A stretch of DNA of 10,032 nt from Escherichia coli. GTDB taxonomy: Bacteria > Pseudomonadota > Gammaproteobacteria > Enterobacterales > Enterobacteriaceae. Positions 9,010-10,032 of the stretch are shown in pieces. Numbering within the stretch: position 1 is the stretch's first letter; each line of letters opens with the position of its first letter. Location: the NCBI RefSeq assembly GCF_036507355.1, contig NZ_AP027880.1. The stretch is one strand, 5' to 3'. Under the pieces are notes generated by a model that worked only from the letters and a program-made list of their open reading frames with translations, was not told the origin of the DNA and did no database searches. The position numbers and the translations under genes were made by a program.

Positions 9010-10032
9010 ATGAAGTTTCGAGTCTTTTGCTTGGCAGCACTCCCCTGCTTTTCGGTTTCAGCGCAGTCTTTAGAAAATTTAGGGTCCTTGACGGCCGACC
9101 AACAGGGAGCCAGCTCTGCCACTGCCGTGAGCGCGGACGGCAGCACGGTCGTGGGGGAGGCTGCTTACGATCTCACGGCAGGCGGGACGGGCAGGCATGC
9201 ATTTCGCTGGACCAGTGCGGGCGGCATGCAGGACTTGGGCGACTTGACGGCCAACCAACAGGGATACAGCTCTGCCACTGCCGTGAGCGCGGACGGCAGC
9301 ACGGTCGTGGGGGGGGCTGCTTACGATCGCACGGCAGGCGGGACGGGCAGGCATGCATTTCGCTGGACCAGTGCGGGCGGCATGCAGGACTTGGGCGACT
9401 TGACGGCCAACCAACAGGGATACAGCTCTGCCACTGCCGTGAGCGCGGACGGCAGCACGGTCGTGGGGGGGGCTGATTACGATCGCACGGCAGGCGGGAC
9501 GGGCAGGCATGCATTTCGCTGGACCAGTGCGGGCGGCATGCAGGACTTGGGCGACTTGACGGCCGACCAACAGGGAGCCAGCTCTGCCTATGCCGTGAGC
9601 GCGGACGGCAGCACGGTCGTGGGGGGGGCTAATTACGATCGCACGGCAGGCGGGACGGACTATCATGCATTTCGCTGGACCAGTGCGGGCGGCATGCAGG
9701 ACTTGGGCGACTTGACGGCCAACCAACAGGGATACAGCCATGCCACTGCCGTGAGCGCGGACGGCAGCACGGTCGTGGGGTGGGCTAATTACGATCTCAC
9801 GGCAGGCGGGACGGGCAGGCATGCATTTCGCTGGACCAGTGCGGGCGGCATGCAGGACTTGGGCGACTTGACGGCCGACCAACAGGGAGCCAGCTCTGCC
9901 TATGCCGTGAGCGCGGACGGCAGCACGGTCGTGGGGTGGGCTAATTACGATCGCACGGCAGGCGGGACGGACTATCATGCATTTCGCTGGACCAGTGCGG
10001 GCGGCATGCAGGACTTGGGCGACTTGACGGCC
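9010..10032 (+). CDS. Type Va autotransporter, N-terminal portion: signal peptide plus HAF-type repeat units 1-6. The frame runs open off the window end and continues at nt 1.
   Basis: ATG at 9010 gives MKFRVFCLAALPCFSVSAQS (basic N-terminus, hydrophobic core, AQS cleavage-type motif), then LENLGSLTA and six 52-aa repeats. There is no stop before 10032, which is presumably why it is absent from the ORF track. 9010 and 1 are in the same frame because the window length is divisible by 3. Confidence 0.8.
   Translation, partial: MKFRVFCLAALPCFSVSAQSLENLGSLTADQQGASSATAVSADGSTVVGEAAYDLTAGGTGRHAFRWTSAGGMQDLGDLTANQQGYSSATAVSADGSTVVGGAAYDRTAGGTGRHAFRWTSAGGMQDLGDLTANQQGYSSATAVSADGSTVVGGADYDRTAGGTGRHAFRWTSAGGMQDLGDLTADQQGASSAYAVSADGSTVVGGANYDRTAGGTDYHAFRWTSAGGMQDLGDLTANQQGYSHATAVSADGSTVVGWANYDLTAGGTGRHAFRWTSAGGMQDLGDLTADQQGASSAYAVSADGSTVVGWANYDRTAGGTDYHAFRWTSAGGMQDLGDLTA
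9097..10032 (+). repeat. Tandem array of 156-bp (52-codon) coding repeats, units 1-6. Unit starts: 9097, 9253, 9409, 9565, 9721, 9877.
   Basis: The period is exactly 156 bp, measured from recurrences of GACTTGACGGCC at 9241, 9397, 9553, 9709, 9865 and 10021. Units are near-identical. The HAF(R)W motif matches the HAF family of probable extracellular repeats. Confidence 0.95.

Follow-up and report, generated by a model that had tools for sequence, protein, structure and literature searches.

The window analysed here, a stretch of 10,032 nucleotides from Escherichia coli (NCBI RefSeq assembly GCF_036507355.1, contig NZ_AP027880.1), is a complete circular plasmid that was opened within the gene for an autotransporter whose passenger domain is encoded by a tandem array of 52-codon units. 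The gene occupies 9010..10032 and then 1..1245 on the plus strand, and its product is 755 amino acids long. The first 1023 nt (341 codons) join position 1 without a break in the reading frame, which remains open until the stop codon at 1243-1245. Because it runs on from 10032 into position 1 with the same repeat unit, the circular molecule must have been opened inside the gene. An independent E. coli contig of exactly 10,032 bp (L009, GCA_012892915.1), in which the gene is internal, equals the rotated window in all but one base. From its N-terminus the protein comprises a signal peptide, a short strand, seven full 52-residue units, a degenerate eighth unit, a linker and a C-terminal domain (Table 1). 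An initial annotation of this DNA, made from the sequence alone, had given the array as 9097-10032. Units 1-6 do lie at 9097-10032, but the repeats continue round the circle as unit 7 (1-156) and unit 8 (157-~270). Tandem Repeats Finder reports an array with a period of 156 nt at 9087-10032, with 6.1 copies and 94% matches. The open frame that begins with the ATG at 9010 encodes MKFRVFCLAALPCFSVSAQS..., and this start codon is fixed by the fact that homology to the corresponding genes of Castellaniella and of a metagenome contig begins about 25 nt before it, with unrelated sequence further upstream.

The protein is a type Va autotransporter whose gene is cargo of a small mobilisable plasmid, with the array coding for its passenger. 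The C-terminal domain matches the autotransporter barrel family PF03797 (E = 1.3e-14, 55 bits against a cut-off of 26, residues 499-729), while the passenger matches the NCBIfam HAF repeat model TIGR02913 over eight stretches (166 bits against a cut-off of 22.65), corresponding to seven full HAF repeats and one degenerate repeat. The HAF family is defined as a sequence model only. An AlphaFold2 model of the full protein, built with 51 homologues (pLDDT 89.7), places a helix at residues 443-473, directly before the first barrel strand, and in Foldseek comparisons the barrel matches the translocators of EstA, NalP, EspP, BrkA and AIDA-I at a probability of 1.0. The protein ends in ...VGYSARF, with a C-terminal aromatic residue as in AT-1 autotransporters. 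Together with the C-terminal barrel, the helical linker and a Sec signal peptide read by eye, the features of a classical (type Va/AT-1) autotransporter are present.

As the full-length Foldseek search was dominated by the barrel, the passenger was also modelled on its own. This second AlphaFold2 model forms a single compact domain of 32 strands (pLDDT 92.9, pTM 0.91), and the passenger is predicted to be an eight-bladed beta-propeller with four strands in each blade. In the predicted closure, of the velcro type, the N-terminal strand LENL would complete the eighth blade, to which unit 8 contributes the other three strands. Structural alignments of the passenger with beta-propeller lectins and WD40-type platforms show 7-22% sequence identity, and a profile search of Protein Data Bank sequences returned no related solved structure. 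A protein search found thousands of homologues, which carry autotransporter, PEP-CTERM and other anchors. Our literature search on HAF repeats found nothing on their variability.

Table 1. Features of the autotransporter gene and its flanks, in window coordinates.
Feature	Position	Strand	Basis and remarks
8-nt tandem repeat CTTTGGGG, 2 copies and a partial one, 57-81 nt upstream of the start codon	8929..8953	+	sequence read
5' part of the autotransporter gene: start codon, signal peptide, closure strand, units 1-6	9010..10032	+	in frame with position 1
Signal peptide MKFRVFCLAALPCFSVSA	9010..9063	+	likely cleavage between VSA and QS, read by eye; model residues 1-19 pLDDT <50
N-terminal strand LENL, counterpart of unit strand 4 (MQDL)	9067..9078	+	DSSP E20-23 in the full model, E2-6 in the passenger model
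HAF repeat units 1-6, 156 nt each, starting at 9097, 9253, 9409, 9565, 9721 and 9877	9097..10032	+	TIGR02913 and codon alignment
G8 homopolymer, codons 19-22	unit 2, 9309-9316; unit 3, 9465-9472; unit 4, 9621-9628; unit 7, 57-64	+	
Repeat unit 7	1..156	+	further differences: codon 46 GAT (synonymous), codon 50 L>F, codon 52 A>S
Degenerate unit 8, three strands only: DQQGSSSATAVSADGSVVAGIASNDAGEMRAFIYK	157..~270	+	sequence and model
Alpha-helical linker, residues 443-473, predicted to traverse the barrel	304..396	+	DSSP helix H443-473
Autotransporter beta-barrel, residues ~484-755, ending YSARF; stop codon 1243-1245	427..1245	+	PF03797, Foldseek
Hairpin GGCGCT-CAA-AGCGCC followed by TTTTTT	1312..1332	+	read by eye

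The repeat units are distinguished by where, and how, they differ. In a codon-by-codon recount, units 1-6 differ at 16 nucleotide columns, all of which fall within codons 1 (GAC/AAC), 5 (GCC/TAC), 7 (TCT/CAT), 9 (ACT/TAT), 21 (GAG/GGG/TGG), 23 (GCT/GAT/AAT), 26 (CTC/CGC) and 32-33 (GGC AGG/GAC TAT). These are exactly the variants that the initial annotation had listed when it confined the differences across 9097..10032 to nine codons. Its further claim that every difference between these units is nonsynonymous also holds, as all variant codons alter the amino acid and the pairwise synonymous and nonsynonymous differences per site are pS = 0 (0/557 synonymous sites) and pN = 0.069. The earliest synonymous change, GAC to GAT, occurs where it had been placed, in codon 46 of unit 7 (nt 136-138). 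Fifteen of the 16 variable columns are at the first or second codon position, the sole third-position column belonging to the triple change AGG/TAT, and six of the nine codons carry two or three changed bases. The chance of 16 random columns falling into nine codons or fewer is about 2e-5, and that of finding at most one third-position column among them about 0.01. The all-nonsynonymous pattern has P = 0.012 if the 16 changes are taken as independent and 0.083 if they are counted as nine events, so that the clustering into codons is the stronger signal and the lack of synonymous change is itself only moderately unlikely. The annotation had also described the variants as recombined in different combinations between units, and such a mosaic structure is evident in 15 four-gamete incompatibilities among the seven units.

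Recent amplification followed by relaxed constraint would offer one account of this pattern, with the variable codons being unconstrained loop positions of the HAF repeat that drift neutrally, and they do form a subset of the positions that are unconserved across the family consensus. Neutral drift nevertheless predicts an equal synonymous rate, and in units 1-6 the 16 changes in nine codons stand against none at the roughly 33 synonymous sites of the other 43 codons. Nor does it fit with the third positions of the variable codons themselves, which are mostly unchanged (1/16 variable columns).

Both AlphaFold2 models place the four strands of each unit at codons 6-11, 17-25, 31-39 and 43-46. 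Codons 1 and 5 then lie in the loop between strand 4 of one blade and strand 1 of the next. Strand 1 contains codon 7, close to its beginning, and codon 9; strand 2 has codons 21 and 23 in its latter half; the loop between strands 2 and 3 holds codon 26, and strand 3 has codons 32 and 33 at its start. Because a blade is an antiparallel four-stranded sheet, all nine are brought to the same sheet end, with ADGS (codons 13-16) and AGG (codons 41-43), two invariant turns, at the opposite one. By strand topology, the variable codons are thus predicted to occupy the D-A and B-C loops and the adjoining strand ends, forming one axial face of the propeller. This face is the one that propellers usually use for ligand binding. 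The proposal in the initial annotation that the variable residues make up a small set on one face agrees with the topology of this confident model, and the residues are probably exposed at the surface, as it had also suggested.

Related arrays in other lineages show that both the uniform scaffold and the restricted variation extend beyond the window. A DNA scan with a 38-nt stretch of the scaffold found Castellaniella only among species-representative genomes and nothing among metagenome contigs; a further array, on the metagenome contig L007 from the European Nucleotide Archive (ENA), was reached through its protein cluster. Castellaniella ginsengisoli JCM 15515 (L003) carries six full units that match the window exactly in scaffold DNA, while its amino-acid-variable codons are 5, 7, 9, 21, 23, 26, 27, 32, 33 and 50, with residues mostly unlike those of the window. 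The non-repeat 3' parts of the two genes have diverged in the ordinary way, at 30/1089 nt (10 synonymous and 16 nonsynonymous codons). Just three synonymous differences separate the Castellaniella units, at codon 20, codon 24 and codon 26 (CTC/CTA), and all three are in or beside variable codons, a pattern that would be expected if linked neutral differences survive homogenisation only next to selected sites. The L007 array has seven units with the window's scaffold, largely of two recurring types, and varies at codons 4, 5, 7, 23, 26, 27, 30, 32, 33, 37, 46 and 50, again with residues mostly unlike the window's. Six of its seven units share a synonymous change from GCA to GCG at codon 35, and this lineage-specific spread is typical of concerted evolution. 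Concerted evolution, which the initial annotation had put forward for the scaffold, is therefore in keeping with the identical DNA within the window array and in Castellaniella as well as with the codon 35 change in L007.

The same comparison speaks for diversifying selection at fixed codons, the second process that had been proposed. Eight of the ten variable codons in Castellaniella are among the window's nine (P = 5e-7), as are six of the 12 in the metagenome array (P = 2.7e-3). In a comparison of four arrays, the face codons have a pN of 0.26-0.29, far above the scaffold values for pS (0.011-0.053) and pN (0.004-0.023).

A more distant homologue from Pseudomonas (L006), with units of 49 amino acids, behaves differently. 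Its units show ordinary synonymous divergence, with 22/46 variable columns at third positions and 14 codons that vary synonymously only, while its amino-acid variation falls at positions equivalent to those in the window. The close arrays thus have few synonymous differences between units and the Pseudomonas array has many. Zero synonymous change is therefore a feature of this young or homogenised array and not of the family. Position-specific variability, on the other hand, is a family trait, since L006 varies at the equivalent positions, with the DNA-identical scaffold peculiar to the plasmid-borne lineage. The coexistence in L006 of variation at these positions with ordinary synonymous divergence suits an explanation by neutral drift. 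Set against it is the excess of face-codon pN over scaffold pS, which is 5- to 25-fold in three lineages, and we regard drift at unconstrained positions as unlikely to account for the array.

Comparison of near-identical plasmids indicates how the array may be changing at present. Three other E. coli plasmid copies differ from the window only by a few substitutions in the variable codons, one extra unit and indels. The single difference from L009 over 10,032 nt is at nt 169, in codon 5 of unit 8 (TCC/GCC). A 2,195-nt sequence from another E. coli assembly (L008) has four differences, all in the array and all at codons 7 and 23: AAT to GAT at codon 23 of unit 5, TCT to TTT at codon 7 of unit 6, and TCT to CAT at codon 7 of unit 7, the last of which changes two bases and yields exactly the allele of unit 5. 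A complete plasmid record (L001) has no mismatches over the 8.8 kb backbone and carries units 1-6 in the window's order, with a change from GGG to GAG at codon 21 of unit 2 that is also found in L010/P0128. Four of the five substitutions between plasmids create alleles that are present in other units and one creates a novel allele (TTT). The matches may reflect conversion between units, with which they fit, and the two-base change in unit 7 of L008 is the only strong evidence among them; it is consistent with the segmental gene conversion that the initial annotation had envisaged.

That annotation had also seen the array as a substrate for changes in copy number, and unit counts do differ between records: six full units in Castellaniella, seven in the window and L009, eight in L001 and about 10-11 in the noisy record L002. 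The extra unit in L001 has a head like that of unit 7 and a tail like that of unit 6, as unequal exchange might produce, and a 5-nt deletion in the G run at the junction breaks the frame.

Could the array itself be an artefact of assembly, either collapsed or chimeric? Short-read E. coli contigs do break within it (L005 at 9,442 bp, L010 at 9,591 bp and L008 at 2,195 bp), some metagenome versions contain only zero or one full unit (P0135, P0138), and L002 is an error-rich record. Two independent assemblies nevertheless give one 10,032-bp circle with an identical array, and L001 repeats units 1-6 in order apart from the one base in codon 21 of unit 2. A collapse would also not be expected to generate in-frame, multi-base and exclusively nonsynonymous differences at matching codons in three lineages. 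An artefact is extremely improbable on these grounds, and we rejected a collapse of divergent copies on the strength of the concordant L009 contig and L001.

A third explanation places the origin of the variants outside the gene. Variant patches might be imported from diverged HAF-repeat genes on other plasmids or chromosomes, which would constitute a shared pool of alleles, with the identical scaffold providing the homology for recombination. Several observations are compatible with this: alleles are common to different lineages (TAT at codons 9 and 33, TAC at codon 5, GCT/GAT/AAT at codon 23 and CTC/CGC at codon 26), some patches of several bases take in a neighbouring synonymous base, as GGA-TAC does at codons 20-21 of both the Castellaniella and the metagenome units, and the unrelated upstream contexts show that the gene moves by recombination. 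The scans described above, however, found no same-scaffold donor beyond the known arrays, with Castellaniella the only hit in species-representative genomes and none in metagenome DNA. The chromosomal homologues of Comamonas, Bordetella avium and Pseudomonas are only 45-68% identical in protein sequence, too diverged to supply patches that leave the scaffold unaltered. Import would in any case complement rather than replace the explanation we favour, as selection is still needed for pN to exceed pS so greatly. As the source of the pattern by itself, we think it improbable.

Targeted hypermutation, by a diversity-generating retroelement or another site-directed mutator, is suggested by the variation at first and second codon positions over constant third bases (NNC/NNT-like), which superficially resembles variable regions derived from AAC/AAT template codons. 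The targets of such retroelements likewise vary at the first and second codon positions of a ligand-binding surface. They differ from the window array in requiring a reverse transcriptase, a template repeat and adenine specificity, none of which was found on the plasmid. No reverse transcriptase is present among the called plasmid genes in Pfam-annotated gene lists, and searching the remaining plasmid sequence for repeats gave no further copy of the unit that could act as a template. The variable columns of the window are all two-state and 5/19 never carry A, as is also true of 17/40 columns pooled across arrays. Seven tandem targets would also be unlike those of known retroelements. A diversity-generating retroelement was rejected for these three deficiencies, and a mutator of any kind has very little to recommend it. 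We infer that selection lies behind the diversity of the codons, with RecA-type conversion as the process that shuffles them.

The nearest studied relative by architecture would be XatA of Xylella fastidiosa, an AT-1 autotransporter with six LGxL repeats of about 50 amino acids and a predicted propeller fold, which makes cells autoaggregate and form biofilm, an effect also seen on expression in E. coli (PMC3426408). Tandem LGxL repeats of this length (LGDL in the window protein) on an AT-1 barrel and a predicted propeller are common to both proteins, a likeness of architecture. An indirect link is provided by the Xat homologues and paralogues named in Pseudomonas fluorescens Pf-5 (PMC3426408), as a P. 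protegens protein (P0030) is 48% identical to the window protein. XatA is unlike the window array in being chromosomal and in having six mutually diverged repeats, and neither a DNA-identical scaffold nor position-restricted variation has been reported for it. By analogy, the window protein may function as an adhesin or in ligand binding, and autoaggregation and biofilm formation are the best functional lead.

Taken together, the evidence makes it probable that the gene encodes a XatA-like autotransporter with a HAF propeller passenger, in which exchange and conversion homogenise the scaffold, selection diversifies the codons of one face and conversion shuffles these codons between blades. In this model, frequent recombination among the tandem units would keep the 43 scaffold codons identical at the DNA level, through unequal exchanges that gain or lose whole units and through short gene-conversion tracts. 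Each blade would have about 9-13 codons, in the D-A and B-C loops of one axial face, that selection retains and at which it favours change. Because the scaffold is identical, short conversion tracts could carry a variant codon from one blade to another, and one expressed gene would be able to generate new combinations on the binding face without a separate donor cassette.

Several points weigh against this model. Codons 7 and 9, lying inside strand 1, could face the groove between blades rather than open solvent. With units that exchange sequence, pN/pS between repeats is not equivalent to a proper dN/dS ratio, and the 13-codon face set was partly defined on the data to which it was applied, a circularity that the nine-codon overlap test on the other arrays avoids. 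Three of the four allele-matching changes between plasmids involve single bases and so are possibly point mutations. Conversion is visible only where units differ, so that the location of these changes is expected even without selection; selection is argued instead from the large excess of pN over pS and from the codons that differ at several bases. Finally, L001 and L002 may hold long-read errors, L002 being error-rich and 95-96% identical, which makes the evidence for copy-number change weaker.

Parts of this design are familiar from other systems. The TAL effector repeats of Xanthomonas and Ralstonia are nearly identical in DNA, differ at fixed specificity codons, and are reshuffled and altered in number by recombination. 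They share with the window array its uniform DNA, fixed variable codons and recombination, without homology. The TAL repeats are helical units of 33-35 amino acids that read DNA bases with two variable residues, whereas the window encodes 52-residue beta-propeller blades with about 9-13 variable residues in a predicted surface protein. The Borrelia vls system (PMC3828179), Neisseria pilE/pilS and the Mycoplasma genitalium MgPa system (PMC2169797) resemble the array in having conserved flanks around short variable stretches; in them short conversion tracts create mosaics and the variable regions show diversifying selection, as is proposed for the array. These systems copy silent donor cassettes into one expression site; in the window every unit is in the expressed frame and can be both donor and recipient. 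Within the plasmid, a repeat search of the remaining sequence found no silent cassettes, with all copies of the unit lying in one open reading frame.

This difference raises a bolder possibility, which we consider doubtful on balance, that the identical scaffold is itself functional. The array would then be a self-templating variation system, in which each of the eight blades of a single expressed propeller adhesin could both give and receive short conversion tracts. Combined with the gain and loss of units, and possibly with on/off switching through the G8 runs and the 8-nt repeat, this would let plasmid populations continually generate new combinations on the binding face. If this is true, a single plasmid-borne gene would do what vls or TAL-effector shuffling does, in a fold and family for which nothing of the kind has been described. 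Type Va autotransporters, HAF repeats and the Xat architecture are known; what is new is a set of DNA-identical blades with a position-restricted, recombining variable face.

HAF-repeat proteins make up a very large family of predicted surface proteins on which we found almost no functional work, and the natural variation in this array marks the residues that are likely to set specificity, on one predicted propeller face. Being carried on a plasmid, with its closest relatives in Burkholderiales, the gene may represent a transferable adhesion or aggregation trait. If conversion within the gene drives the variation, the array would offer a compact and tractable model for the coexistence of concerted evolution and diversifying selection, and a model for a natural propeller scaffold in binder engineering.

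Elements that could affect expression lie within the array and on either side of the gene. The 8-nt repeat CTTTGGGG upstream of the start codon is present in two copies in the window, L001, L005 and L009, and in five copies in L010 (E. coli GCA_026778185.1). Adhesin expression is classically tuned by changes in the copy number of repeats in a promoter or leader. The G8 run, which the codon 21 alleles GAG and TGG interrupt and which is shortened by 5 nt in the extra unit of L001, is either a site of slippage and phase variation or a hot spot for sequencing errors. Downstream, the hairpin at 1312..1332 is likely to be the intrinsic terminator of the autotransporter gene, as judged from its sequence. 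A consensus terminator scan did not list it, probably owing to the A and T runs on either side, which lengthen the stem. Upstream, homology between the window (8850-9009), L003 and L007 ends about 10-25 nt before the start codon, and since the sequences beyond are unrelated, the gene stands in a different upstream context in each.

The composition of the gene is uneven, with 66-67% G+C in the array (9201-10000) as against 51-57% in the barrel-coding part (401-1200) and about 53% in the upstream leader. This contrast hints at different histories or constraints for the passenger repeats and the translocator. An antisense open reading frame (ORF) of 299 amino acids also passes through the array on the minus strand (9079-9978); all homology evidence is on the plus strand, and this frame may simply reflect the repetitive, G+C-rich sequence.

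Elsewhere, the plasmid encodes RepA_C, an RHH protein, ParA, a resolvase, a Rep3 initiator, a MobA/MobL relaxase and a ParE-like toxin, and so has two different replication initiators, RepA_C and Rep3. Four iteron-like copies of GGGGGGTCCGATTTAACG at 2176-2286 lie beside the RepA_C-type initiator gene (2447-3442, minus strand), and this region is probably a replication origin. A perfect 56-nt G+C-rich direct repeat is found at 2023-2078 and 6088-6143, 4 kb apart, with one copy about 100 nt before the iteron-like repeats and the other within the Rep3 ORF. The region at 6001-6400 reaches 74% G+C, and the annotated length of Rep3 differs between records (231-232 or 257 amino acids). A stretch of about 70 nt in this Rep3 region (window ~6254-6322) is absent from L001, the two backbones being otherwise free of mismatches. 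The resolvase gene (4558-5310, minus strand) and some small ORFs are flanked by a 54-nt inverted repeat (4473-4526 and 5576-5629, 98% complementary), which may serve as res sites, as sites of inversion or as the termini of a small mobile segment. Over most of its length the plasmid is 60-70% G+C, and its genes have relatives in Castellaniella, Comamonas and Bordetella. E. coli is an unexpected host for such a plasmid, which is present in at least seven separate E. coli assemblies, including those of human-faeces isolates from Viet Nam.

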